A DNA stretch of 64,000 bases from assembly GCA_016867415.1 (NCBI GenBank), contig VGJO01000001.1:148312-212311 (forward strand), given 5' to 3'. Below are positions 7,157 to 64,000 of the stretch, in pieces (the first letter of the stretch is position 1; every line of letters begins with the position of its first letter). Both the position numbers and the translations under genes were made by a program. The notes under the pieces are model-generated. The model saw only the letters and a list, made by a program, of their open reading frames with translations. It was not told the DNA's origin and ran no database searches. The stretch is from Candidatus Harrisonbacteria bacterium. GTDB lineage: Bacteria > Patescibacteriota > Minisyncoccia > UBA6257 > UBA11618.

Positions 7157-8341
7157 TTACTCAGAGGCTTCTCCTGCACCCATCTCCGTCCTCTTAGCCG
7201 CTTCTTTAATTTCCTTCTCTATTCTCTTAAGTAATTCTGGTTGTTCTTTAAGACTGACTCGTACGTTGTCAAAACCCACTCCGAGTTTAGTGTCCGAGAA
7301 AGAGTAGCTCGCTCCCGATTTAGTCACTACTTTGTATGCTAGACCCGTATTTAAAACATCGGCCTCATAAGAAATTCCTTCTCCATACATAATATCAAAT
7401 TCTGCATTTTTGAAGGGTGGTGCCACTTTATTTTTAACCACCTTTGCCTTCACTCGGTTACCTATAATTGTTTCACCTTTTTTGATCTGGGCCATCCGGC
7501 GAATATCAATCCGGACAGAGGAATAAAATTTGAGTGCCCGGCCGCCCGGCGTGGTCTCTGGTGAGCCAAACATCACCCCAATCTTTTCTCTGAGTTGGTT
7601 GATGAAAATAATCAGCGTATTCGTCTTAGCTGAAATTGCGGTTAGTTTCCGCAAAGCTTGCGACATCATCCGAGCTTGAAGGCCGATAAACTGCTGGCCC
7701 ATCTCTCCTTCAATTTCTGCTTTCGGCGTAAGCGCCGCTACTGAGTCTACTACTACCACGTCAATAATCTCCGATTTCACTAAGCCTTCTAGGATCGAGA
7801 GTGCTTCTTCTCCATTATTAGGTTGGGAGATAATCAGGTCTTTTACCTTCACTCCTAATCGAGCTGCATAGTCCGGATCCATGGCGTGCTCCGCGTCAAT
7901 GAAGGCGCACCGACCGCCTTTTTGCTGTGATTGAGCAATGCAATTAAGAGCTAAAGTTGTCTTTCCTGAAGATTCCGGTCCGAAGACTTCGATGACTCGT
8001 CCTTTTGGCAAGCCGCCGACTCCAAGGGCTAAGTCGAGTGAAAAGGATCCTGTGGGGATTACATCAATATTTACTTTTCGAAGTTCTCCCATCCGCATCA
8101 CTGATCCTTCGCCAAATCGATCCTGTAAATCCTCAATGAGCTTCTGTACTTCGCTGTTTTTCTCCTTCTCCTTTTTCTGATCTGCTGTCTGTGATGAGCC
8201 TCGATCTGAGCGGGCGGCCTGCTCTTTCTCTCGCTTCGCCGCCGCCTTCATATCCTCCTTCTCTTTTTTCTCCTTGTCCATATTTTTATTTGATGGGATT
8301 TTGTAATTCAAAGTTATATCGAATTTTTTCCTCTTATTCAA
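7157..8341 (-). CDS. recA: recombinase RecA with ~55-75 aa lysine/glutamate-rich N-terminal extension
   Basis: 'GSVMRMG', Walker A '[12 protein letters not shown]', 'IDAEHA', L2 loop region; extension MNKRKK...KKEKEKNSE precedes canonical start region. Confidence 0.9.
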
Positions 8342-9062
8342 TAGGGAAGATGTCTTCGAATGGAGAAATCTTTTTAGTGGTTATCGTAGGCGTACTCGTC
8401 GCCGCATGTATTTGTTCGTAGACAATCCGCTTGGTGAGAGTCGTCTCTCTACCCAAAAGTTTTTTCGCTTTAACCTCAATGATATTTATTCCTGCTGTGA
8501 GTGATAATTCTTTTTCAAATCGGCCATCTTCATCCACAAAAACATCCACGCCGTTGATCGTGATCTTTCCGCCTGCACCCGTCTTTCCTTCGATCTGAAC
8601 GCTGTTTTCCCGGACGATGAGATTATCGCTTTCTGGATAGGTGATAGTAAGTTTCGGTGTCCCAAGAAGGGTATTGATATTAAAAAGGGCATAAAGGGCA
8701 AAAAGAAAGATGATAAAGAGTGCTAAGAAATATTTTTTTCTATAAAATCGCAACGCATAGCGGTTGTTAGGAAGTAGATCCCTTTCTCCGGAGCTCCGTG
8801 GCCGAGTCTCCCGCTTATATGCCCGCCAGATATCCTCCGCCTGAAATCCCAGATTATCTCCGAGCCGCAAGATAAAGCCTCGTACATATGGCTCCGGCGG
8901 CAGCTTCTCATATTGCCCGAGAAGCATTGCATTAATAAATCGTTCCTGCACTCCGGTCTCCTCCACCAATTTTTTAACGCTTGTCCCCTTAGCATTAATG
9001 GCTTCTTTTAGGTATTCAGAAAACCGGAAATTTTCCATGGGGTCATTATAGGTAAGTCCCAC
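8334..9062 (-). CDS. RodZ-like HTH (HTH_25) membrane protein
   Basis: N-terminal HTH followed by '[20 protein letters not shown]' RodZ signature, one TM helix, C-terminal beta-rich domain; 8-bp overlap with recA. Confidence 0.55.
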
Positions 9063-9157
9063 TTTTATGCAACTCGCCTACGTAGCTGTTCTAAAGTTCT
9101 AAAAAAAGCCAGAGCGTGGAGCCGGCCCACCTAGGGTCGAGCCTCCCTTAAGGGAGA

Positions 9158-9195
9158 ATAAAAACAGAGAATGTACTCATTCTCTGTTTTTATAA
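9158..9195. terminator. bidirectional hairpin with flanking A/T tracts (aaaaacagagaatg-tac-tcattctctgttttt) inside a divergent intergenic region
   Basis: perfect 9-bp inverted repeat seen directly; T-tract on + strand, A-tract upstream. Confidence 0.5.
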
Positions 9196-9256
9196 AAAGA
9201 TTAAAAATCTTTTGCTCGCCCCGCATACTTCACCACCCCTCCTAATCTTTGTGTTA

Positions 9257-9375
9257 CCAAAGAACCCCTCCCTTCCCCTATAGTGACTATTCTGAGAAAA
9301 AAATCTTTTCCGAAGATAAAGGGAAAGTTCGCCGGAAACTTTCCTGTGTCACGGTAGGGAAAGAAGGGGTTCTGG
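9257..9375 (+). repeat. motif-A element copy A: 28-nt inverted repeats (ccaaagaacccctcccttcccctatagtgac / gtcacggtagggaaagaaggggttctgg) flanking nested hairpins
   Basis: direct reading; arms ~26/28 complementary; shares core with copies at 18239, 32894, 39471. Confidence 0.6.
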
Positions 9376-9421
9376 AAACTATCTAAAATATAAGCTTAGT
9401 ATTTTTCCTAAAAAAGTATCC

Positions 9422-9946
9422 ATGCTTGCTTTTTATTTTTATTTTGTATATAAAGCTTTCAATTCCAATTTCCTTAAAATGAATCGCCTTCTTAAGCTGA
9501 CACTAGCGGTTATTATATTTTTTCTTTTTGCCAGCTTCTCTTTTGTTCTGCATGCCTTCTATATTTCTCCCTCCCACACCTTCGCTCTTAGTGAAAAAAA
9601 ATTTGCCAAAGACTCTGGTGGCAATCCTGATGCCGCTCTTCTTCTAAAAAACTTTTCTGATCTTCTCGAGGAGGGAAATATTGAAAAAGCTCTTCCGCTT
9701 CTTGCTAGTGCCGATAATGAAAAGAATTTCTTATTAATGAAAAAAGCTCTCGAGACAGAAAAGTCTCAAGGCTCCCTCCCACATCTCATCTCTCTTATTC
9801 GCCTTGCCACACTCGATGCTTCTCAATCCCCATCTTCCGCCGATCTTATTTTTTCTGTTTTTGACCCGGCTGCCGGTAATCTCCTAGGCGAAGTAATCAT
9901 CAGGAAAAACCAAATAGTGGGTAACTATCAGATTCACAGTTTCTAA
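9422..9946 (+). CDS. hypothetical membrane-anchored protein (likely true start at MNRLLKL, 9479)
   Basis: 174 aa ORF, N-terminal hydrophobic helix, no known motif. Confidence 0.4.
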   Translation: MLAFYFYFVYKAFNSNFLKMNRLLKLTLAVIIFFLFASFSFVLHAFYISPSHTFALSEKKFAKDSGGNPDAALLLKNFSDLLEEGNIEKALPLLASADNEKNFLLMKKALETEKSQGSLPHLISLIRLATLDASQSPSSADLIFSVFDPAAGNLLGEVIIRKNQIVGNYQIHSF

Positions 9947-9949
9947 TCC

Positions 9950-12900
9950 ATGATTTTTTCCCGCCTCCTCTTTCTTATTGTCTTCATCCCTTTTTTCTCT
10001 CCTGCGTTTGTCTTTGCCTATGAACTCTCCGCCCACGAGCGCCTCACTCGAGCTATCATCGATTCTATCAATAATTCCAGCTCTTTTTCCCTTTCAGAAA
10101 GTGAGGCCGAGGCCTTGGTGAAAGGTGTTCTTGCCGAAGATAATCTTCCTCGGCCTCTTAATCATTTTTATGATCCCGTTCATAAAAAAGGTCTTTCTCT
10201 CGGTACTCATATTTTTGAATCCGCAAAAAGATGGGCCAATGACCCCTTCTCTCAAAGAACCTTCACGAAATCAAATTTTCTTACTCGCCGCCTTTTTAAT
10301 GCCGAGGATAATATCTTCACTTACAATCGTGCCTTAGAGCTCTACAAGCAAGGCAAGAAAATTGAGGCTTACGAACATTTAGGTCACGTCCTCCATCTTG
10401 TCGAAGACATGGGCGTGCCCGATCACACTCGCAATGACGCACACCCCGCCGAGACCAGTCCTTATGAAAATTTTACTAAAGATGCTCCTCTTCCATATTC
10501 AAAAAAGTATTTGAATACCATTGCTCCTCGCCGCTTCTCTTCCCTTGACGCTGTTTTTGTTCACCTCGCCCGCTATTCGAATTCCAGTTTCTTTTCTGAA
10601 GACACCATCCTTTCCGAAGACTATCCCGCTCCTATCCCCAAAGGAATAAAAAAAGTAGCCGACGGCTATGAGTACGCCTACCGCACTGATGAGAACGGTG
10701 TTGATTATCTTCTCTATCGCCGCCGTCTTCCCTCTCTTTCCAGTTTTATTGGCAATGACGCTTATACCGAATTTAATACTCTGAAAAGTCTCCCGGTATT
10801 GGAGGATTACTATGCTCACCTAAGTCGCGAGGTGATCGCCTCCGGTCTCGGTCTTTTCTCTTTATTTTTGAAAGATGTTGGTGAGCCCGATCTTTCTTTT
10901 ATTCCAAAAGTTTCTCTTTCTGACCCTGCCTTGTCTCTTATTGATTCCGCTTCATCCTCACCCGCAATCAGTCTCACGGTAGAAAGAGAAAAAGAATATA
11001 TTCCGGTTTTTGCTCGTGCTCCAGAAGATAATATCGCCGAATTTTCCGCTCTTCTTGCCTCCACTCCTAAAGTGCTAGAAGTCTTCTACAATGCCCCACC
11101 CGTCATTCCTCTTATTCTTGCTCCCTCCACCTCTTCCTCTCTTGCTTCTTCCTCGACTACCTCTCTCACATCTACTTCGACAGCCTCTTCTTTTTCTTCC
11201 CTCACTATTGCTGATTCAGAAAATTCCTCTTCCCCCGCTTCTTCTACGCTTGCCTCTACAACCCCACTTATTTCCGGATCCGCCCTTATCTCCGAAGTTT
11301 TCTTCGATGCCGAAGGTTCTGATACTGGCAAAGAATTTATTGAATTATTTAATCCCGGCGAAACTGCCTTTGATCTTTCTCTTGCCTCTCTGCAGTTTGG
11401 CGAGCTTGGAGGCACTATCAAGAAAAAGAATTTTGAATTGGGCAATAGCATTCCGCCTCACGGATTCTTTCTGATTACGATTGGAGAAGGGGATGCTCGC
11501 GATGGTAAGAAAGGGGACATGCTCTACAAAAGTGGTTCTTTGAAAAATGCCTCCGATACCATCCGCCTCGTAGCCGACCAAATCTCTCTCTCCGCTTCCT
11601 CTACTATCCTTGATAGCTTCCATTATGACATAAGAAATTTCCCGAACTTTACTCCTGGCGCTTCTCTTGAGCGGGCCACTCTTCTTGGCCCTTCCTCTTC
11701 TGACTGCGTAAGAAGCCAGGGTGATGCCGAATACTCCGGTCATTTCTGTCCTGCTCCTACTTTTTACCTTCGCTCTCTTCCTCACTCGCAAAACTTCGCT
11801 TCTTTCAAAGAGCCTCGAGCCTATCCTGAAGAGCCTATTAGCTACGCCTTCACTTTTGATTCCGCTACCCGTTCTCTTAATCTCTCCCTTTCCTCTATTA
11901 ACCCTTTTTCTTATAAGATAAATCTCATTCCCTCCACTGATTTCTTTTATCCCTCATCTGCTTCTCAAAGTTTCTCCACTACGACTAGCGTCTCTGCCAT
12001 TTTTCCTCTCTCTACCCTGGGCCATTCCCTCACCTTTGAGATCAATCTCACCGATGAAGAAGGATTCTCTCTCCCTCCAATATTGCTTCTCTATAATTCT
12101 CCCTCTCTTCTTTCTCATCCTTCATACATAGTCCGTGATGATCTGGGTGATGTCGCCGATCTTAACTTCTCCCTCTCTGATTTTACGAAAGAAATTATCA
12201 GGACTAATACCTCTCATTCCGCTGATACCTATCTTGGTTTTATGAAGCCCGGTTATCAAGACTTTATATTCTCCTCCTCTTCTCCTTCATTCGATCTCTA
12301 CCTGCCTTTCTTTGAGTCACTTTCACCCAGTGCCCCCGCCTCATATTTCCTAAAAATATCCCCCTATGGGAATATCCCCGCGAGTGACACGCTCTCCCTC
12401 GCTATCCAAAAATCCGAATCCGCAATTCCTGTACTTTTCTCCCGCCTTTACGCCTCTTCGACCACCGAGGTTGTCCCTCTCTATACCAATCCATCTCTTC
12501 TTCTCTCCGACCCGCTCTGCGACGGGAGCTTAGACTCTGATCCTTTCCGTGTTTCCTATAATTCCTTCTTCCACCGAGTCACCCTCCGCTCTTGCCGGAG
12601 CGAGAACGATCGCTTTCTCTTTAGTTTCCGTCCAGTAAATTCCGACATCTCTCCTCTAGAAATAAAAAACTCTTCTGATCCCTTTGCTGTCTTTTCTCCG
12701 CTTGCGACCAACGAAAAGTATGAATTCTTAGTCGACCTCCTCGGTGTCGACGGCTCCATTATGAATCATTTCTCTACCACCCTTTTTATCCCCGGCCTCT
12801 TCTCTCGCTTCTCCTTCCCCTCCGAGCTTACGCCCGAAATTGATTCTGCTCTCTCTGAAGAGTTTGAAGAAATCCCTCCCTATATTAGTCTCGAATATTC

Positions 12901-13426
12901 CCGCACTCACCTCTCAGGTTTTCTTACTGAAAAATTATTCAATCGCTCTCTTGGTCTTATTCCGCCCATCACCTCCTCTGGCCAGAGCTTTATTTATCCC
13001 TACGCCAATCATCGTCTTATCCTCTTCACCGACACCGATCCCTCTACCCTTACCCCACCTGATAGCCTCACTCTCTCCAAAGACACCGACTTCACCCTCG
13101 ATTCTGGCACCCTCGGCTTTTCTCCGATCGAAGTCGCCTACACTAATGAAGACATGAGCCTCGAGTATAAGAATCGTTTCCCATATCTTCTCCTCTGCGA
13201 ATCTCGCTTCTATATCCTCGGCCTCGATAATAATTGTTTCAAGACCGACCTTTTACGCTCCTACAGTCTCCGCCTCCCGCTTCTTGTAAAAGACGAAGTT
13301 ACCGAATTTTCTCTCTTGATCTATCGTTTGCAACAGCTCCTCCCGGCCGCCGAAGGTGTCGAAGAATCCGCCCGTTTTGTCCTCGAAAGCATCGACAAAA
13401 ACCGCTATAAAAAATCCGCCGAATAA
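9950..13426 (+). CDS. giant secreted/surface protein: N-terminal zinc-dependent phospholipase C / P1-nuclease-like domain + lamin-tail domain (LTD) + long S/T/P-rich low-complexity region
   Basis: signal/anchor 'LLFLIVFIPFFSPAFVFA'; 'GHVLHLVEDMGVPDHTRNDAHP' His/Asp zinc-ligand pattern; 'ISEVFFDAEGSDTGKEFIELFNPGETAFDLSLASLQF' LTD signature. Confidence 0.65.
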   Translation: MIFSRLLFLIVFIPFFSPAFVFAYELSAHERLTRAIIDSINNSSSFSLSESEAEALVKGVLAEDNLPRPLNHFYDPVHKKGLSLGTHIFESAKRWANDPFSQRTFTKSNFLTRRLFNAEDNIFTYNRALELYKQGKKIEAYEHLGHVLHLVEDMGVPDHTRNDAHPAETSPYENFTKDAPLPYSKKYLNTIAPRRFSSLDAVFVHLARYSNSSFFSEDTILSEDYPAPIPKGIKKVADGYEYAYRTDENGVDYLLYRRRLPSLSSFIGNDAYTEFNTLKSLPVLEDYYAHLSREVIASGLGLFSLFLKDVGEPDLSFIPKVSLSDPALSLIDSASSSPAISLTVEREKEYIPVFARAPEDNIAEFSALLASTPKVLEVFYNAPPVIPLILAPSTSSSLASSSTTSLTSTSTASSFSSLTIADSENSSSPASSTLASTTPLISGSALISEVFFDAEGSDTGKEFIELFNPGETAFDLSLASLQFGELGGTIKKKNFELGNSIPPHGFFLITIGEGDARDGKKGDMLYKSGSLKNASDTIRLVADQISLSASSTILDSFHYDIRNFPNFTPGASLERATLLGPSSSDCVRSQGDAEYSGHFCPAPTFYLRSLPHSQNFASFKEPRAYPEEPISYAFTFDSATRSLNLSLSSINPFSYKINLIPSTDFFYPSSASQSFSTTTSVSAIFPLSTLGHSLTFEINLTDEEGFSLPPILLLYNSPSLLSHPSYIVRDDLGDVADLNFSLSDFTKEIIRTNTSHSADTYLGFMKPGYQDFIFSSSSPSFDLYLPFFESLSPSAPASYFLKISPYGNIPASDTLSLAIQKSESAIPVLFSRLYASSTTEVVPLYTNPSLLLSDPLCDGSLDSDPFRVSYNSFFHRVTLRSCRSENDRFLFSFRPVNSDISPLEIKNSSDPFAVFSPLATNEKYEFLVDLLGVDGSIMNHFSTTLFIPGLFSRFSFPSELTPEIDSALSEEFEEIPPYISLEYSRTHLSGFLTEKLFNRSLGLIPPITSSGQSFIYPYANHRLILFTDTDPSTLTPPDSLTLSKDTDFTLDSGTLGFSPIEVAYTNEDMSLEYKNRFPYLLLCESRFYILGLDNNCFKTDLLRSYSLRLPLLVKDEVTEFSLLIYRLQQLLPAAEGVEESARFVLESIDKNRYKKSAE

Positions 13427-13437
13427 TTTTTTTGTAT

Positions 13438-13473
13438 TGTCATTCCGGCCACCGAGCCAGAATCCAGTACCTC
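13438..13473 (+). repeat. family-2 hairpin repeat (tgtcattccggcc-accgag-ccagaatccagtacctc)
   Basis: 12 nt after stop of 9950..13426; imperfect palindrome attccgg/ccagaat. Confidence 0.6.
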
Positions 13474-13608
13474 AAAAAAATAAAAGTTCGCAGAAGCTTT
13501 CATGTTTCCAAAAAAGGATAAAGACTTCTTTCAAGCAGTAATGATTTTTATATATAAAACCAAATTGTATTTGATTGAACTCTCAACTCAAGTTACTGTA
13601 AAGAAAAT

Positions 13609-17337: not shown

Positions 17338-17462
17338 GAAATTGTAGGATTTTTTGGATGAAGTTTTGTAGTTCTTTTCGAGTATGTACCGGAGCATTCA
17401 AGAATTTGAGTGTGTGAAGATTAAGCTCAGAAAAAACTACAAAAATTCGACAAAAAGATCAG
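17338..17462 (+). repeat. family-1 structured element copy (arms attttttggatgaagttttgtagttctttt / aaaaaactacaaaaattcgacaaaaagat, core ...cggagcattc...gtgtgtgaag...)
   Basis: arms ~26/30 complementary; ends 24 nt before rpe ATG. Confidence 0.6.
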
Positions 17463-17485
17463 ACTTAATTTGTTATAATTAATTA

Positions 17486-18133
17486 ATGAGAATAATCCCC
17501 GCCACCAACGCCGACACCATCGAAAAATTCCGCACCCAACTCCACCGCTTCTCCTCATTTCTCCCTCATGACGCTACTATCCACATTGATCTCTGCGATG
17601 GTAAGTTCACCTCTCACAAGACTCTCCTTGATCTCTCCCTCATCGCCCCGGAAATAAAAAAGACCCCCTTCCGCTTTGAGGGTCATTTTATGGTAAATAA
17701 TCCTGAGCTTCTCATCCCCAATTTTTTAAGCCAAGCCATTTCCCGCGCTTTAATCCCTGTCGAAGTTTTTCACCACTATGAAAAGATCTTTGAGTGGGAA
17801 GAAAAGTACGCCGCCTCCCTCGCTTTCTCCGCCCGCGCTCTCAAGTCCGATGAGCTTCTCCTCTATGCGTTAAAAAAATCTCACCTCCGCGACTGCCTCA
17901 TCCTCGCCGTCCCTCCCGGCCCCGCTGGCCAAACCTTTGATCCTCACGCTCTCCAATCTGTCACAAAGATCAAAAATCATTTCCCCGACTGTCGCATCAC
18001 GGTCGACGGGGGTGTCACCCCCATTCTAATTCCGCTCTTGAAAGATCTCGGCGTCGACGCTGTCGTCCTCCATTCCACCTTCATCACCTCCGGCGACCCA
18101 TCCGCCCTCTTCTTCAATCTTTCTAATATATAA
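17486..18133 (+). CDS. rpe: ribulose-phosphate 3-epimerase-like protein (divergent)
   Basis: 'IHIDLCDGKF', 'GHFMV', 'LAVPPGPAGQTFDP', 'ITVDGGV' align to RPE metal/catalytic positions. Confidence 0.65.
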   Translation: MRIIPATNADTIEKFRTQLHRFSSFLPHDATIHIDLCDGKFTSHKTLLDLSLIAPEIKKTPFRFEGHFMVNNPELLIPNFLSQAISRALIPVEVFHHYEKIFEWEEKYAASLAFSARALKSDELLLYALKKSHLRDCLILAVPPGPAGQTFDPHALQSVTKIKNHFPDCRITVDGGVTPILIPLLKDLGVDAVVLHSTFITSGDPSALFFNLSNI

Positions 18134-18238
18134 GCTTACAGGCCGCATGGATATAATCGCCTTTACGGGCCGCAGGTGACGTGAGAATTATGTGCTCATA
18201 ATTTTCAGTTAATCCTTTCCAAGGACATAATAAAAATT

Positions 18239-18282
18239 CGCAGGAATTTTTTATGTGTTATGGCAGGGTAAAGAAGGGGTTC
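18239..18282 (+). repeat. hybrid element: family-1 5' flank (cgcaggaatttttt) fused to motif-A 28-mer (tgtgttatggcagggtaaagaaggggttc)
   Basis: direct reading; ~95 nt upstream of transketolase N ATG. Confidence 0.5.
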
Positions 18283-18378
18283 TTAAAGTTAACTTGCTCT
18301 ACAAGCTCTCCCTCCTCTTTTCCTAAATACTATCCACTATCTACTAATTAGTAATCTAATTATTTATAATCAAATTGT

Positions 18379-28509: not shown

Positions 28510-28631
28510 CACGCTAGCACCCAGCATAAGCGAAGTAATTTTGAGCTTATTTTCGTTCTTCTTTTCTAAAAAGGTACCGGAGCATACTACAGGAAGTATG
28601 TGAGGAACGTTTTTAGAAAAAAGGATGAGCC
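28510..28631 (+). repeat. family-1 element copy (subtype flank aagcgaagtaattttgag; core ggtaccggagcatac-tacaggaa-gtatgtgaggaac); truncated right arm; orphan ccaaaaatacgagc motif at 28717..28731
   Basis: read directly; sits in 16S 3' flank on the opposite strand. Confidence 0.55.
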
Positions 28632-28914
28632 TCCACTACTACTAGATAAACAAAGAAAAAGAAGAAACAGAATAATCAGTAGAAGAGAGATAAGGTCGGC
28701 TACACGAGCGAAAGAAGCCAAAAATACGAGCGAAGATAAATCCTTTCTTGTTGCCCCAAAAGGTTTTGTTTATCAAACAGAGGATAATCAAACAGTAAAG
28801 TAAGTGAACACATCAAACACTTCTTTATCAGTCCGGCATTGCCATTACAATGCTTGGATTTATCGTGTTATCGACTACTTGAGAAAAGAAAACAATAAAG
28901 TTTCTTTTCTTTTC

Positions 28915-30418
<1,504 letters not shown>

Positions 30419-30929: not shown

Positions 30930-31056
30930 GCATCTCGCATGCGCAGGATTTTTAAGAAGAGTTTGGTTTATCTTCACGAGTTTCGCACAGGGTATTCTCT
31001 AAAAGTCTGTGAGTACAGAATGCAGTAAAAAATAAAAATATTTCAAAAATACAAGC
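30930..31056 (+). repeat. family-1 element copy (flank gcatctcgcatgcgcaggattttt; core ...gtctgtgagtacagaatgcag; 3' caaaaatacaagc 8 nt before ATG)
   Basis: read directly. Confidence 0.6.
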
Positions 31057-31064
31057 TTTTCCTT

Positions 31065-32832: not shown

Positions 32833-32893
32833 TCTCTAACTCAGAATCTATATAAACAAAAAGACCAGAGCGCAGCTCCGGCCTACCACAAAT

Positions 32894-32951
32894 AAAGAGA
32901 AAATCCACTGGAGATTTCCCCGTGTCACGGTGGGGAAAAGGAAGGGTTTTT
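32894..32951 (+). repeat. motif-A element copy B (hairpin aaaatcca-c-tggagattt then ccccgtgtcacggtggggaaaaggaagggttttt)
   Basis: ccgtg-t-cacgg perfect palindrome inside the conserved 28-mer; ~100 nt upstream of pilB. Confidence 0.55.
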
Positions 32952-33052
32952 AAAAAAAATATTTTATCAAGCTTTCCTAGTTATAATAAAAACTCCACTC
33001 ATCTCTCCACTCTCTTTATTTTCTCAAAATGATAAAATAAAACCATACCTCT

Positions 33053-39403: not shown

Positions 39404-39438
39404 CTTATCATTCTGATTCCCCGAGCCAGAATCTATAA
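39404..39438 (+). repeat. family-2 hairpin repeat subtype A (cttatcattctga-ttccccgagc-cagaatctataa)
   Basis: read directly, 1 nt after stop. Confidence 0.6.
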
Positions 39439-39470
39439 AAAAGGCTGGAGCATCTCGTAGGCTTGCCAAT

Positions 39471-39534
39471 CCGAAGATAATGGGAAAGTCCTCTAAAGAC
39501 TTTCCTGTTTCACGGTAAGGAAGTGTTTTTTCTG
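39471..39534 (+). repeat. motif-A element copy C (ccgaagataatgggaaagtcc-tctaaa-ggactttcc tgtttcacggtaaggaagtgtttttt)
   Basis: perfect 9-bp hairpin ggaaagtcc/ggactttcc then conserved 28-mer; ~70 nt upstream of 39602. Confidence 0.55.
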
Positions 39535-39601
39535 AAAAAATATTATCTAAAAGAAAGTTATTTCTGGTTTTCTGTATGTAAAAAAATGTTAAACTTATTC
39601 T

Positions 39602-40087
39602 GTGACTCATAATTTTCAGTCGGGTTTTGTAGTCCTTCCCTCTATAATTATTTTTTCCGTCTTAATTCTTGGCTTCATTTTTACTGGCCTTTACTTATTC
39701 AGCAGCCTCAACTTCACTGGCGCCTCTGCTCGTTTCTCCCTCGAAGCCGAAAATATCGCCCGCTCTGCTCTTGGTGACATGACTCGCCGGATCTTAGATC
39801 AAAATGATCCAAATTTTGGCGGTCTTTCTGTTGCTTCCGATTGTAGTGATTTTAACACCGCCTCAACCTTCACTGACTATAATCTTTCTTTTCCAAGTGC
39901 TCGCATCCGTTACAAATCATGCTGTAATTCCCCAGCTACAAATCCTTGTCCTGAAATAAAAACTCGCTTCGAAATCGCTCCCACAAATCTCTTCCTCGGC
40001 AACGCCCGCCGCTTTTACTCCACTCTCTCCATCGATCCTCTCACTCGCGAGCTCCGCGTGAGTCCCTTAGAAAAGAAAAAATTCTAA
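39602..40087 (+). CDS. pilin-like protein (PilX/minor pilin-like; atypical N-terminus QSGFVVLPSIIIF)
   Basis: hydrophobic N-terminal helix after G-F, Cys pair CC/C near C-term; position in T4P operon. Confidence 0.45.
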   Translation: MTHNFQSGFVVLPSIIIFSVLILGFIFTGLYLFSSLNFTGASARFSLEAENIARSALGDMTRRILDQNDPNFGGLSVASDCSDFNTASTFTDYNLSFPSARIRYKSCCNSPATNPCPEIKTRFEIAPTNLFLGNARRFYSTLSIDPLTRELRVSPLEKKKF

Positions 40088-45276: not shown

Positions 45277-45404
45277 ACATCGCCACGCGCAGGATTTTTC
45301 GAGGAAATTTTGATTTTCTTTGCGAGTACTGGACGGAGCATGCTGCGGAAAGCCTGTGAGTATGGAACGCAGCAAAAAATCGAAAGTTACCGAAAAAGAC
45401 AAGC
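45277..45404 (+). repeat. family-1 element copy (flank cgccacgcgcaggattttt; core gagtactggacggagcatgc...cctgtgagtatggaacgcag; 3' ccgaaaaagacaagc)
   Basis: read directly, 27 nt before HIT ATG. Confidence 0.6.
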
Positions 45405-45430
45405 TTTAAAAATTAAAAGTAAGGAACATT

Positions 45431-50417: not shown

Positions 50418-50630
50418 TGCAGCACAAGTGAAGTAATTTTGGATAAAGTTTGAAATTTATTTTTGAGAATGAGCCTCTACTACCAAAAGATAGTCATATT
50501 GAATGCAAAGTCTATAGAATCAGAAGTAAAGATCAGAAAGAGGAAAGATGAGCGCAAGGGAGTATATATAAAGAAGAGATTGTGAGTATGCAGTACAGAA
50601 AAAAATCCCAAAATCCAAAAAAATACGAGC
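50418..50630 (+). repeat. long (~213 nt) family-1 element copy (flank gcagcacaagtgaagtaattttgg; core ...gagtatatataaagaagagattgtgagtatgcagtacag; 3' ccaaaaaaatacgagc) located in the ftsA-ftsZ gap, not upstream of a + gene
   Basis: read directly. Confidence 0.55.
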
Positions 50631-50642
50631 ATTTAAAAAATA

Positions 50643-55852: not shown

Positions 55853-55988
55853 GTCGCGCTACCACAGCGAAATAATTTTGGAGGGTATTTCGATTTTCTT
55901 TGCGAGCAGCGAACGGAGCATACAAGAACTTTAGTATGTGAGTACGCAGCGGATCAAAAAAATTAAAATACCCTCCAAAAGTACGAGC
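55853..55988 (+). repeat. family-1 element copy (flank gtcgcgctaccacagcgaaataattttgg; arms ggagggtatttcgattttcttt / aaaaaaattaaaataccctcc; core gagcagcgaacggagcatac-aagaacttta-gtatgtgagtacgcagcgg; 3' ccaaaagtacgagc)
   Basis: arms end in perfect 11-bp ggagggtattt/aaataccctcc. Confidence 0.7.
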
Positions 55989-62143: not shown

Positions 62144-64000
62144 TTAATATCCCTTATCTTTTAATTCATTTAATCTCTCTTGTATTACTGCCTCTAGTCT
62201 TTCGGTAGTAGCTATTAGTAGATTTCTCGTCCCCGCCTTCACTGTCGTCGTAAGTTTCGGCGTAAACCCAATATTATTTTTATTAATGACATTCATTGCT
62301 TTATAGTATACCCGCTTGCTTCCCAAGGTTCCTGGTGTCCCTGAGATCTGCAAGAAGCAACTTTCCATATCCGAAAAAGCCTCCACCGTCAACATCGGTG
62401 GCACGACAATATCTTTCTTATTAGCTTTTTTGACCGCTATCTCAAGGCCGCTGTAAGCCCGCCCTAAAGAATATTTAGTCGTCGCCTCAATCATGCGGGT
62501 AATGGCGAGGATCACCAAGTCTTTATGTTTTTTTAATCTATCCTCCGCATCAAGCAGTAGAATAGCGCTCTCAATCGCTGCAATATTTTCCTTAATCACT
62601 TCACTCCCTCCCGCCGCCATAAGACATATCGGCATCAGCGAGTAATCTCGCAGTAACTCCTCTGGCTTCTTTTCTTTTTTTACTTTTTTCTTTGATGGGG
62701 GATTAAGAATAGAAAGTCCGGAATTATCAGTCGTTTCTTCTACGTTAAATAATCCTTTGAAATTATTTACCAAATTTTCAAAAAAAGTCGTTTCTTCTTC
62801 TGTCGGTTGCTTTTTATACTCTGGCAAATAATATTCTTCTTCATAATCAGTGACGTAGGTATTTTGCTTTGCTGAAATCTCCGGTATCACATCATACTTA
62901 GCTAATTTTTCCCCCCAGTCTTTAATTACTCGGAAGCAATAAGAGCTCTCCACTCGGAAAGCGGGCCCGGCTGTGAGAGAAAGATCAAATAACCCTCCTT
63001 CATTTGCATTTATATTGGTCCTATTGGAAAATTTTTCATTGCTTTCCAAATACTTTTGCTCAATAGTCTTTCCATGGTTGGGTACGACATCTTTTGGATC
63101 TTCGGTTGATATTCGGGCATAATCCCCATCATCCGGAAGGTTATTATAGTATTGAAAAAGTCCAGATTTATTCGTCACGTCATTATACGTTTCCCCAGCA
63201 CCTTCCGCATCGCAAGTACCCACTCGCTCCGCTGTCTGGAGTTTGAAGCGTTCTTGAGAAATAAGATCCTTGTCGCTTACATGAAGGATGAGGCGTAAGC
63301 GAAAATTAGCATTGCCCTCATGAAAGAAAGTGGTATCGAGCGGAGTTTTATCTGGCGCTATCGGTCTCCCCGCTTTAGTCGTCTTCGTCATTGAGAAAAA
63401 TCTATATCCTGAAAGCCTTATGCTCGGAATGATTACTCCGCTGCTACCTCCACCTCCGCTACTACCTCCGCTGCTACCTCCACCTCCGCTACTACCTCCG
63501 CTGCTACCTCCACCTCCGCTACTACCTCCGCTGCTACCTCCACCTCCGCTACTACCTCCGCCTCCGCTACTACCTCCGCTGCTACCTCCACCTCCTCCAC
63601 CTTCGTCACCACCTCCGCCTCCTCCACCTTCGTCTCCTCCACCACCCGAAGCCGCTTCTGTTATAAAATTCCATGTGTCAGCATCATTGATCCCTGAATA
63701 ATTATTATTAGAAAGATCTTGAAATGCCCCATTCGAAATATTGATGTGATAGTTATGAGAGTTAGAAAGATTCCCGATTGGATTAATAGTTACTGTATCT
63801 CCTGATATGGTTACTTCTGATGAGTTCACGTTGATTGTCGCCGCCGTTGAGTTATTTGTGTCGTCTATAATGCTAATAGATCCACTTCCTTTTTTAATAT
63901 TTTCTGAAAAGGTGATGACAAAGTCGCTCGCAATTGAGACATTTGTGCTGTTGTCTGCGGGGGATAAAGTGCTGATAGTTGGCCCCCCGCTTCCGATCAC
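62144..64000 (-). CDS. surface protein, C-terminal ~618 aa of a gene continuing past the window end: bacterial Ig-like (SbsA/Big_5-type) domain, Gly/Ser-rich linker, unknown C-terminal domain
   Basis: 'LSPADNSTNVSIASDFVITFSENI...VTINPIGNLSNSHNYHINISNGAFQDLSNNN' Ig-like pattern; linker encoded by tandem 30-nt repeats. Confidence 0.55.
   Translation of the reverse strand: MIGSGGPTISTLSPADNSTNVSIASDFVITFSENIKKGSGSISIIDDTNNSTAATINVNSSEVTISGDTVTINPIGNLSNSHNYHINISNGAFQDLSNNNYSGINDADTWNFITEAASGGGGDEGGGGGGGDEGGGGGGSSGGSSGGGGSSGGGGSSGGSSGGGGSSGGSSGGGGSSGGSSGGGGSSGVIIPSIRLSGYRFFSMTKTTKAGRPIAPDKTPLDTTFFHEGNANFRLRLILHVSDKDLISQERFKLQTAERVGTCDAEGAGETYNDVTNKSGLFQYYNNLPDDGDYARISTEDPKDVVPNHGKTIEQKYLESNEKFSNRTNINANEGGLFDLSLTAGPAFRVESSYCFRVIKDWGEKLAKYDVIPEISAKQNTYVTDYEEEYYLPEYKKQPTEEETTFFENLVNNFKGLFNVEETTDNSGLSILNPPSKKKVKKEKKPEELLRDYSLMPICLMAAGGSEVIKENIAAIESAILLLDAEDRLKKHKDLVILAITRMIEATTKYSLGRAYSGLEIAVKKANKKDIVVPPMLTVEAFSDMESCFLQISGTPGTLGSKRVYYKAMNVINKNNIGFTPKLTTTVKAGTRNLLIATTERLEAVIQERLNELKDKGY
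63433..63600. repeat. tandem ~30-nt DNA repeat (ccgctgctacctccacctccgctactacct, ~5 units) encoding GGGGSSGGSS linker
   Basis: periodicity read directly in sequence. Confidence 0.7.

Follow-up and report, generated by a model that had tools for sequence, protein, structure and literature searches.

The repeat upstream of a giant-protein operon

In the genome of a Candidatus Harrisonbacteria bacterium, a short non-coding sequence with a potential hairpin is found upstream of an operon that encodes a giant protein, and similar sequences recur upstream of several other genes. The question raised by this locus is whether the sequence is a regulatory site that is shared by surface and pilus genes, a cis-regulatory RNA, or an element of a different kind. 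It was analyzed in a stretch of 64,000 nt of contig VGJO01000001.1 (the window). The element turned out to be a lineage-specific, dispersed, structured intergenic repeat, which entered the genome at junctions between genes and has its orientation set toward the downstream gene.

A repeat search of the window revealed that the recurring unit is an ungapped core of 53 nt at positions 9309, 18218, 32885, and 39470, always on the + strand. When the copy at 9309 is used as the reference (100%), the non-reference copies have identities of 68–83% (18218, 68%; 32885, 74%; 39470, 83%). A scan of the window with a spaced pattern of 50 columns yielded matches at exactly these four sites, while 0.01 matches are expected by chance. 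The same four sites were obtained with a degenerate core of 14 columns and up to one mismatch (0.39 expected). The repeat search and the 50-column pattern thus recovered the four-copy, + oriented family that a sequence-only reading of this DNA had proposed at these places. That reading had taken a conserved 28-mer as the repeated unit, which did not hold. The exact 28-mer is present only at 9345-9372 and is unique even when three mismatches are allowed, and an exact or near-exact 28-mer was therefore rejected as the unit. Its aligned positions match in 25/29 cases at 18218 (copy D), 23/29 at 32885 (copy B), and 19/29 at 39470 (copy C, which lacks the GAAGGGGTTC end).

A covariance model with the corrected structure (R2) was run without filters on the window, and the copy scores are based on it. 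The four strong copies A-D reached 90–96 bits. Copy A (95 bits) extends from 9305 to 9397 on the + strand and includes a hairpin (9305-9359) with an apical stem (9322-9344), the box that corresponds to the 28-mer (9345-9372), and an AT-rich end with a -10-like TAAAAT at 9384-9389 (TATATT on the minus strand) and AAGCTT at 9392-9397. Copy D (18214-18307, +, 96 bits) has its hairpin at 18214-18268, its box at 18254-18282, and ACAAGCTC at 18301-18308, and it is flanked by the genes for ribulose-phosphate 3-epimerase (17486-18133) and transketolase N (18379-19239). Copy B (32881-32975, +, 93.7 bits) precedes pilB (33053) and consists of a hairpin at 32881-32935, a box at 32921-32949, and AAGCTT at 32970-32975, while TGATAAAAT is found on its minus strand at 32961-32969. 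Copy C (39466-39553, +, 90.7 bits) is localized between the genes for a 290-aa protein and a 161-aa protein of the pilus operon; its hairpin is at 39466-39520, and its box (39506-39533) is truncated and ends with T6.

The model added a degenerate fifth + copy, E, at 13469-13559 (20.2 bits, E-value 0.044), between the gene for the giant LTD-domain protein and a SpoU methylase gene. In copy E, ATAAAAGTTCGC-AGAAGCTTTCATGTTTC has been kept and the box has decayed. The only minus-strand match of the model, a weak one beside copy A, represents a partial inverted copy, A' (9259-9300, 13.7–18 bits), which retains the 5' strand of the lower stem and the box (GTCACTATAGGGGAAGGGAGGGGTTC; 22/29 match to the 28-mer) without the apical stem. 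In total, the 64-kb window contains the four strong copies, the degenerate copy E, and the partial copy A', and none of them is within a gene; no copy is present in 9.4 kb of left flank outside the window. The hairpin/box repeat family is therefore real, non-coding, and present in at least five gene-to-gene gaps of this genome. The density is about 1 copy per 13–16 kb. The copies differ by 17–32%, and all of them have a common 5' boundary.

Each of the five + copies (A-E) has a + gene downstream. The box is oriented toward the next gene start in every copy, including the sole minus-oriented piece A', which fits a gene-linked cis-acting role of some kind. Copies A' and A are arranged back-to-back in a divergent gap with their boxes outward, and the A' box is directed to the minus-strand gene at 8334-9062, which is the sole neighbor on that strand. 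The distances between box end and start codon are 106 nt for A (ATG at 9479), 96 nt for D, 103 nt for B, and 68 nt for C, which does not fit the previously given range of 40–100 nt. The segments between box and start codon have no significant similarity between copies, apart from a marginal similarity of A and D.

The genes downstream of copy A encode a 155-aa hypothetical protein and the 1158-aa LTD-domain giant protein (9950-13426). Copies D, B, and E precede transketolase N, pilB, and the SpoU methylase gene, respectively, and copy C precedes the gene for the 161-aa pilus-operon protein, which is followed by a gene for a PilM-like protein. The downstream genes are heterogeneous and thus do not form a coherent regulon; a regulon shared by surface and pilus genes had been suggested, but transketolase N and, in the case of copy E, the SpoU methylase do not belong to either group.

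A covarying hairpin includes part of the box

The alignment of the copies contains one imperfect hairpin of 55 nt (columns 6-60). It consists of outer and middle stems (CC/GG, CCG/CGG, and GATA/TGTC) and an apical stem of 8 bp, and its 3' strand is identical with the first 15 nt of the 28-mer. The covariation of a hairpin in front of the 28-mer was confirmed, but the hairpin is not a separate preceding element, it is only the apical part of the 55-nt hairpin. Pairing was observed in 88% of the alignment cells, compared to 37–57% in controls in which the partner was slid by 1–3 columns. Five compensatory pairs were found, four of them within the apical stem. Three of the compensatory changes each divide the copies in another way, namely {A,C|B,D}, {A,D|B,C}, and {D|rest}, and therefore represent separate events. 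The stem sequences vary while pairing is kept, which argues for selection on the structure and not for a protein that reads both half-sites. For the same reason, the element does not qualify as a simple operator: The perfect palindrome CCGTG-T-CACGG is indeed present in copy B, but only there.

Unconstrained folding of the + strand resulted in the same hairpin as the minimum free energy structure for copies A (-17.6 kcal/mol, z = -1.8), C (-17.9 kcal/mol, z = -2.9), and D (-17.9 kcal/mol, z = -4.2). When the copies were folded as single-stranded DNA, A, C, and D formed the hairpin on either strand. The purine-rich box (GTGTCACGGTAGGGAAAGAAGGGGTTCT) continues 3' of the hairpin as a purine-rich tail (AAAGAAGGGGTTCT), which is followed by about 20 nt of AT-rich sequence. 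The AT-rich stretch ends at AAGCTT in two copies (A and B) and at AAGCTC in copy D, at a spacing of 20–21 nt from GGGGTT/AGGGTT.

For copy A, an inverted repeat of 28 bp had been described. The inverted partner exists, but not its extent: The ungapped arms (9261-9277 and 9357-9373) comprise 17 nt with 88% complementarity, and about 22/29 positions match when one indel is introduced. The 124-nt region of the pair folds with -46.2 kcal/mol (z = -4.0). The alternating complementarity of segments in this region had been likened to an attenuator, and this idea was not supported. The alternative helix, formed by the apical 3' arm and the purine tail, is 85.7% paired, which was also reached after sliding by -1 column and by 145 of 500 shuffles; hence, it is no better than its controls. 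A U-run follows the alternative helix in copy C only. The alternative pairing represents complementarity of a purine tract and a pyrimidine tract, not a conserved helix.

The copies are absent from the syntenic loci of relatives

The gene order is common to related Patescibacteria, but the element is not. The gene before pilB ends 12–20 nt upstream of pilB in four related loci (L020, L042, L043, and L044), and a fifth locus, L023, has a spacer of 197 nt without a repeat copy. The 290-aa/about 150-aa gene pair has an overlap of 4 nt in L020, L023, L043, and L044, and the spacing between rpe and tktN is 11 nt in L041. In the window, the respective junctions have lengths of 220, 198, and 245 nt and contain copies B, C, and D. 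Application of the covariance model to the syntenic loci of related Patescibacteria yielded nothing credible; one match of 19.7 bits in L041 was rejected as an ordinary terminator plus promoter. Because the genes at the junctions of B, C, and D abut or overlap in the relatives, these copies are lineage-specific insertions. The pilus cluster has a size of 10.6 kb in the window versus 8.46 kb in L020 and L043, and is thus 2.1 kb longer.

Database searches did not reveal the element in other taxa. No family of Rfam 15 matched the motif at gathering thresholds in the whole window, and around A, B, and C only noise of 8–23 bits was obtained on either strand with E-values of up to 10. The spaced degenerate pattern had 2 matches in 185,579 species genomes and 13 matches in the JGI metagenome collection, and 5 matches of a 17-mer were found in IMG/VR; all of these are unrelated and mostly represent coding sequence. 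A blastn search against phages and plasmids gave nothing. The collections used for the pattern scans missed the JGI contig with copy B (L003) and the source metagenome-assembled genome; they evidently lack this organism, and therefore the negative results cover other taxa and the strict pattern only. All contigs of the species with the window proteins are 100% identical to the window and thus clonal. The one divergent strain (L040, ERR14789947) has the same sequence over the 215 nt that surround copy A. The lineage is isolated, with 66% identity for the closest non-self match of PilB.

The copies were also inspected for hallmarks of mobile elements. Terminal inverted repeats are absent from B, C, D, and E, and a box partner is present in A only. 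A shared or duplicated flank, as expected for a target-site duplication, was not seen by eye in the alignments, in which the element ends are not sharply defined. Genes for a transposase (Y1_Tnp, DDE), a recombinase, or a classical transcription factor are absent from the 73 kb that were examined (window plus flank). A GTAG head is present only in copy A (GGTAG), while B, C, and D have GGTGG, GGTAA, and GGCAG.

Strand evidence and terminator- and promoter-like signals

The evidence regarding the functional strand is not uniform. For A, C, and D the fold of the + strand is better by 2–6 kcal/mol, and five pairs of the lower stem toggle via G.U on the + strand only. In copy B, the fold of the minus strand is better, and all 4 of its 4 mismatches are A.C on the + strand and G.U on the minus strand. 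The covariation term of RNAalifold is better for the minus strand (-1.88 versus -0.69 for the + strand). The strand evidence is thus split.

On the minus strand, a U-rich tract follows the apical stem in every copy (CUUUAUCUUC, UUUAUUUGUG, CAUUAUCUUC). A terminator scan of the minus strand flagged the apical stem with its T-rich tail in A, B, and C (9–10 pairs with 3–4 GC pairs, at least 5 T in 8), whereas the apical stem of copy D failed because it has fewer than 3 GC pairs. In addition, a second GC hairpin with U5–U6 is found on the minus strand directly after B and C, and the scan flagged the one at B. The latter is a GC-rich hairpin with U5 that resembles an intrinsic terminator and abuts copy B (32858-32884, minus); two of its positions are A.C mismatches when read on the + strand, but G.U on the minus strand. 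The weaker GC hairpin with U6 that abuts copy C (39437-39467, minus) was read from the sequence and the minus-strand fold. The sequence family of the hairpin at copy B has a second member (AAAAAGNCCAGAGCG..CCGGCC) at 9102-9128 on the minus strand, about 180 nt from copy A.

The -10-like hexamers 3' of the box in A, B, and C were read from the sequence. Many genes of the window have extended -10 boxes of the TGnTATAAT type 7–20 nt before the start codon, including pilB, the transketolase gene, and the gene after copy C, and this placement suggests leaderless messenger RNAs or messenger RNAs with very short leaders. The promoter candidates at the start codons are TTGCTT-17-TATAAA downstream of A, TGATAAAAT at pilB, TATAAT at tktN, and TGTTAAACT downstream of C. 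Since the likely promoters are at the start codons, the motif ends about 70–100 nt upstream of the likely transcription starts and is probably outside of the leader. An independent small RNA (sRNA) gene would need its own promoter and terminator around 50–300 nt of non-coding sequence. Candidates for both are present on the minus strand in B, are weak in A and C, and are absent in D.

Neighboring elements and the genomic context

Two further repeat families are abundant in the intergenic DNA of the window. Both appear to be missing from the intergenic DNA of the relatives, judged from the sequences compared. Family 1 is a long-hairpin element of roughly 120 nt (CAGCGCAGGATTTTT...GTATGTGAGTAC...CCAAAAATAYRAGC(TT)) and all copies are on the + strand (1341-1462, 17405-17463, 27295-27415, 28529-28622, 30939-31058, 45285-45412, 50581-50638, and 55865-55987). 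They usually stop 0–30 nt before an ATG, and two of them flank the 16S gene. A terminal AYRAGCTT box is common to family 1 and copies A, B, and D. The second family consists of 3'-end hairpins (TCATTCYRG-loop-YYRGAATC(C/T)A) without a U-tract. It is present on the + strand at 1722, 13438, 16225, 30818, 35998, 37799, 38478, 39410, 42767, 46248, 50229, and 58895, and on the minus strand at about 2745-2775, directly 3' of stop codons and in the orientation of the upstream gene. The exact pattern had no match in the relatives' loci. This family may represent a non-canonical 3'-end signal or a repeat that resembles an uptake sequence.

Further observations were made close to individual copies. The 15-mer CTCATAATTTTCAGT occurs twice, at 18195-18209 in a small hairpin 4 nt upstream of copy D, and at 39606-39620, where it corresponds to codons 2-6 of the gene that follows copy C. 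Because the 15-mer and the motif are arranged in a different order at the two loci, segments may have been copied between the loci of copies D and C. Starting at copy A', a strongly structured candidate RNA is predicted on the minus strand (9150-9290, -41.7 kcal/mol, z = -4.1). Its end is formed by a strong bidirectional terminator (9160-9192), a second terminator is located at 9108-9128, just upstream of the RodZ-like gene, and the candidate RNA overlaps a 31-aa open reading frame with an AGGAGG-like sequence upstream.

The giant LTD-domain protein is 100% identical to protein FJY91_00760 of a metagenome-assembled Candidatus Harrisonbacteria genome. It has no paralogs, and other matches are at most 36% identical and from other organisms. 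In comparison to strain L040, the C-terminal half of its gene (11100-13300) is 15–25% diverged at the nucleotide level and 89% identical at the protein level, with flanks that differ by less than 1%. By sequence comparison, this half is a hypervariable or recombined segment of a surface protein. In L041, CsrA is encoded between the LTD gene and spoU (10686-10880, corresponding to 13427-13608 of the window). The LTD-spoU junction of the window contains the degenerate copy E, and csrA is absent from the 64 kb. A CsrA-binding sponge was rejected as an explanation of the repeat because copy D has no GGA motif and csrA is missing from the window. Several other candidates were also discarded. A TIGR-Tas guide array would require a tandem array, box C/D motifs, or a Nop-domain gene, none of which was found; spacings and key bases of the box do not fit a sigma-54 or extracytoplasmic-function-type promoter, as judged by eye; and for a coding remnant, one frame yields CHG.E..GFLKK-like strings, but stop codons are found upstream and a start codon is present in D only.

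The 16S rRNA gene (28913-30418, minus strand) has the 3' end ...GUAGAUCAUUUAAUG (also written ...GUAGAUCAUUUAAUGAAAAG, 28913-28950), which lacks a CCUCC anti-Shine-Dalgarno sequence. Loss of the anti-Shine-Dalgarno sequence is a reported trait of a subgroup of Parcubacteria (PMC9297842). In addition, compared with the bacterial model, the first 5' hairpin of the 16S rRNA contains an insertion of 32 nt (30305-30340), and in the 515 region CAGCAGCAGCGG is found in place of CAGCAGCCGCGG. At the right end of the window (62144-64000), a large minus-strand gene contains a 12/18/30-nt periodic CTCCGCTGCTACCTCCACCTCC repeat (63406-63645) that encodes a Gly/Ser-rich repeat, and the public assemblies of the organism end in this repeat-rich gene at the right contig end.

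Possible functions of the repeat

As a tentative explanation, to which we assign less than an even chance, we favor that a lineage-specific dispersed intergenic repeat of about 70–95 nt, similar to Correia, REP, or BOX elements, acts as a gene-boundary cassette. It is favored because a single model would cover most of the features, i.e., the stem, the minus-strand terminators, the spacing of box and -10, the orientation, and the back-to-back pair. Its mode of spread, promoter activity, role in termination, and benefit for the host are parts that we infer. Copies would have been inserted or duplicated into junctions that are compact in related bacteria, and selection would keep the imperfect 55-nt hairpin, the purine-rich box, and the AT-rich stretch, which contains -10-like hexamers. 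Oriented to the downstream gene, the box together with the AT-rich end would supply or modulate the promoter of this gene. On the opposite strand, the apical stem and its U-rich flank (YUUUAUCUUC) could operate as an intrinsic terminator, which in B and C would be reinforced by the second GC hairpin with its U-run, and the minus-strand terminators would halt divergent or antisense transcripts short of the upstream gene. In the case of read-through from the upstream gene, the hairpin on the sense strand might mark or protect the 3' end of the upstream transcript. The uniform orientation could be explained if only insertions with the promoter end toward the gene were tolerated inside former operons.

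Several points weigh against this explanation. Only four to six copies from one clonal population are available, which does not allow a test of constraint within the population or across species. The promoter and terminator calls are consensus matches in AT-rich DNA, one and the same spot has readable -10-like hexamers on either strand, and the TGn extension that is typical for this genome is present only in the minus-strand box of copy B. Copy D has the best-preserved hairpin and box, yet it has a poor aligned -10 and an apical stem of only A/U pairs, which would be a weak terminator. The G.U evidence is split, with A, C, and D in favor of the + strand and B in favor of the minus strand. Terminal inverted repeats are absent except in copy A, target-site duplications were not seen by eye, and a transposase is absent from the window. 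Furthermore, there is a stronger promoter candidate at each downstream start codon, and therefore the promoter of the element itself may be irrelevant.

Two rather unlikely alternatives account for part of the same features. One is a family of minus-strand sRNA genes, with a promoter in the AT-rich stretch, a C/U-rich 5' seed (GAACCCCUUCUUUCCCUACCGUGACAC), and an end at the apical stem and the U-rich tract, followed by a second terminator in B and C. The minus strand of copy B resembles a complete sRNA gene, as it has an extended -10 (TGATAAAAT, 32961-32969), a C/U-rich 5' end of which about 25 nt are unpaired, two hairpins, and mismatches that are all G.U on this strand. It also includes a GC terminator of 10 bp with U5, and its fold has -29.8 kcal/mol (z = -2.4). 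The terminator-like calls in A, B, and C and the better RNAalifold covariation term are also on the minus strand, and a most conserved part that would be single-stranded together with a variable part that is a covarying stem is the usual pattern of sRNA paralogs. However, the five G.U-toggling pairs of the lower stem function on the + strand only, A, C, and D fold better on that strand, and copy D has neither a credible promoter nor a credible terminator on the minus strand. The sRNA explanation also leaves the uniform orientation away from the downstream gene and the partial copy A' unexplained, Rfam matches are absent on both strands, and the copy density, next to the two further repeat families, is more in line with a dispersed repeat. 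This explanation and the gene-boundary cassette overlap because a short divergent transcript could itself be functional. With a similarly low probability, the repeat is a selfish non-autonomous element without host function, of the class of miniature inverted-repeat transposable elements (MITEs), REPINs, or IS200-type palindromes, and the hairpin and box would then be recognized by a transposase whose gene is located in another part of the genome. The lineage specificity and the absence from the relatives' syntenic junctions would be expected for such an element, as would the decayed copy E, the deleted copy A', the REPIN-like doublet with inverted boxes at copy A, the coexistence of two other abundant repeat families (one with the shared AYRAGCTT end), and the single-stranded-DNA hairpin of A, C, and D. 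The missing terminal inverted repeats in B, C, D, and E, the lack of target-site duplications visible by eye, and the lack of Y1 or DDE transposases in the 73 kb examined argue against it. In addition, dead copies would not be expected to keep compensatory pairing at 17–32% divergence, and neither the common 5' boundary nor the invariable orientation of the box to a gene start fits a selfish element.

Binding of an activator or repressor to the box, which would then cover the -35 region of a weak promoter immediately 3', is improbable. The box is the best-conserved segment, it has a fixed distance of 11–13 nt to -10-like hexamers without a -35 or TG extension (A, B, and C), it is retained in the partial copy A' without the hairpin, and surface or pilus genes are downstream of 3 of the 4 good copies. 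On the other hand, dyad symmetry is confined to copy B, the boxes of D and C differ at 4–10 positions, transketolase and SpoU are among the downstream genes, and, apart from the RodZ-like HTH_25 protein, no protein of the window has a domain of a DNA-binding type. A binding site would also not explain the covarying hairpin and the minus-strand terminators. By far the least probable is an attenuator or riboswitch in a + strand 5'-untranslated region, in which the apical stem would compete with the alternative helix of the purine tail. The + strand hairpin is stable and covaries, GGGAAAG and CTTTCC segments alternate, and possible + promoters are found upstream of D (TATAAT near 18153) and, in the case of B and C, behind the 3' hairpins that precede these copies. 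But the alternative helix equals the slid and shuffled controls and is followed by a U-run in copy C only, the downstream genes are functionally unrelated, Rfam has no match, and relatives with the same genes do not have such an element. The likely promoters between motif and start codons also speak against the cis-regulatory RNA of the sequence-only reading, of which the non-coding, intergenic, and gene-facing nature of the motif stood, but not the attenuator, the regulon, the simple operator, or the 5'-untranslated-region RNA.

Comparison with known elements and implications

The repeat was compared to known systems at the level of their general descriptions. Correia elements of Neisseria (CREE/NEMIS) are lineage-restricted intergenic repeats of about 100–150 bp, with roughly 1 copy per 10–20 kb. 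They form long hairpins when transcribed, contain promoter- or terminator-like signals, and are often found just upstream of genes. The repeat described here is similar in that it is short, dispersed, intergenic, hairpin-forming, lineage-restricted, upstream of genes, and has promoter- and terminator-like signals. As with MITE- or Correia-like elements, dispersed copies (B, C, and D) are missing from the orthologous sites of relatives. In contrast, every Correia copy has terminal inverted repeats of 26 bp and a TA target duplication, while the repeat has an imperfect inverted partner in copy A only, no duplication was seen, and there is no sequence similarity by description. REP/BIME elements and REPINs are mobilized by RAYT (Y1) transposases; REPs have 20–40 nt with a conserved GTAG head, are present in high copy number, and stabilize or terminate transcripts. 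The imperfect palindrome with an adjoining conserved short sequence in extragenic DNA resembles REP/BIME elements, and the pair of copies A and A' is similar to the doublet of a REPIN. However, the unit has 70–95 nt, GTAG is present in copy A only, a RAYT gene is not found in the 73 kb, and the orientation follows the downstream gene. The BOX and RUP elements of Streptococcus pneumoniae are modular, structured, intergenic repeats with about 100 copies per genome that sometimes alter the expression of neighboring genes. They are also structured intergenic repeats, but the modular A-B-C organization has no counterpart here, a sequence relation is not apparent by description, and they belong to another phylum.

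If the minus strand is considered, csRNAs, LhrC, and Qrr, which are multi-copy base-pairing sRNAs with C/U-rich seeds, are similar in having a conserved single-stranded C/U-rich 5' part, a covarying terminator hairpin, and several paralogs. The differences are a copy density higher than in the known families, the lack of an Rfam match, and that transcription of the repeat is a prediction from sequence. In addition, the organism has no anti-Shine-Dalgarno sequence, and thus the usual principle of target recognition by Shine-Dalgarno mimicry is not applicable.

To our knowledge, the transcription signals, non-coding RNAs, and mobile repeats of bacteria of the candidate phyla radiation (CPR) have hardly been characterized. 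CPR genomes are usually described as compact and repeat-poor. The Harrisonbacteria genome is an exception, as gene junctions with little or no spacing in relatives are occupied here by three or more families of structured repeats. It is conceivable, although quite unlikely, that several structured repeat families have re-wired the genome of this Parcubacterium without an anti-Shine-Dalgarno sequence, so that compact operons were broken up into leaderless units with transcription of their own. A portable bidirectional promoter-terminator cassette would then delimit each unit and also emit a conserved, short, C/U-rich upstream antisense RNA. If true, this would be a functional, genome-wide element of transcription architecture or a new class of multi-copy sRNAs in the CPR. 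If the repeats are functional, as boundary or promoter cassettes or as sRNAs, they would offer a first handle on the organization of gene expression in such a lineage; if they are selfish, they would document a repeat invasion in a reduced genome. Either way, the advance is modest, as the repeat adds one more case, restricted to a single lineage, to a known kind of element and is not a proven operator or attenuator. Its importance would rise if the repeat turned out to be a functional promoter-terminator cassette or, in a bacterium of the CPR, a multi-copy sRNA.

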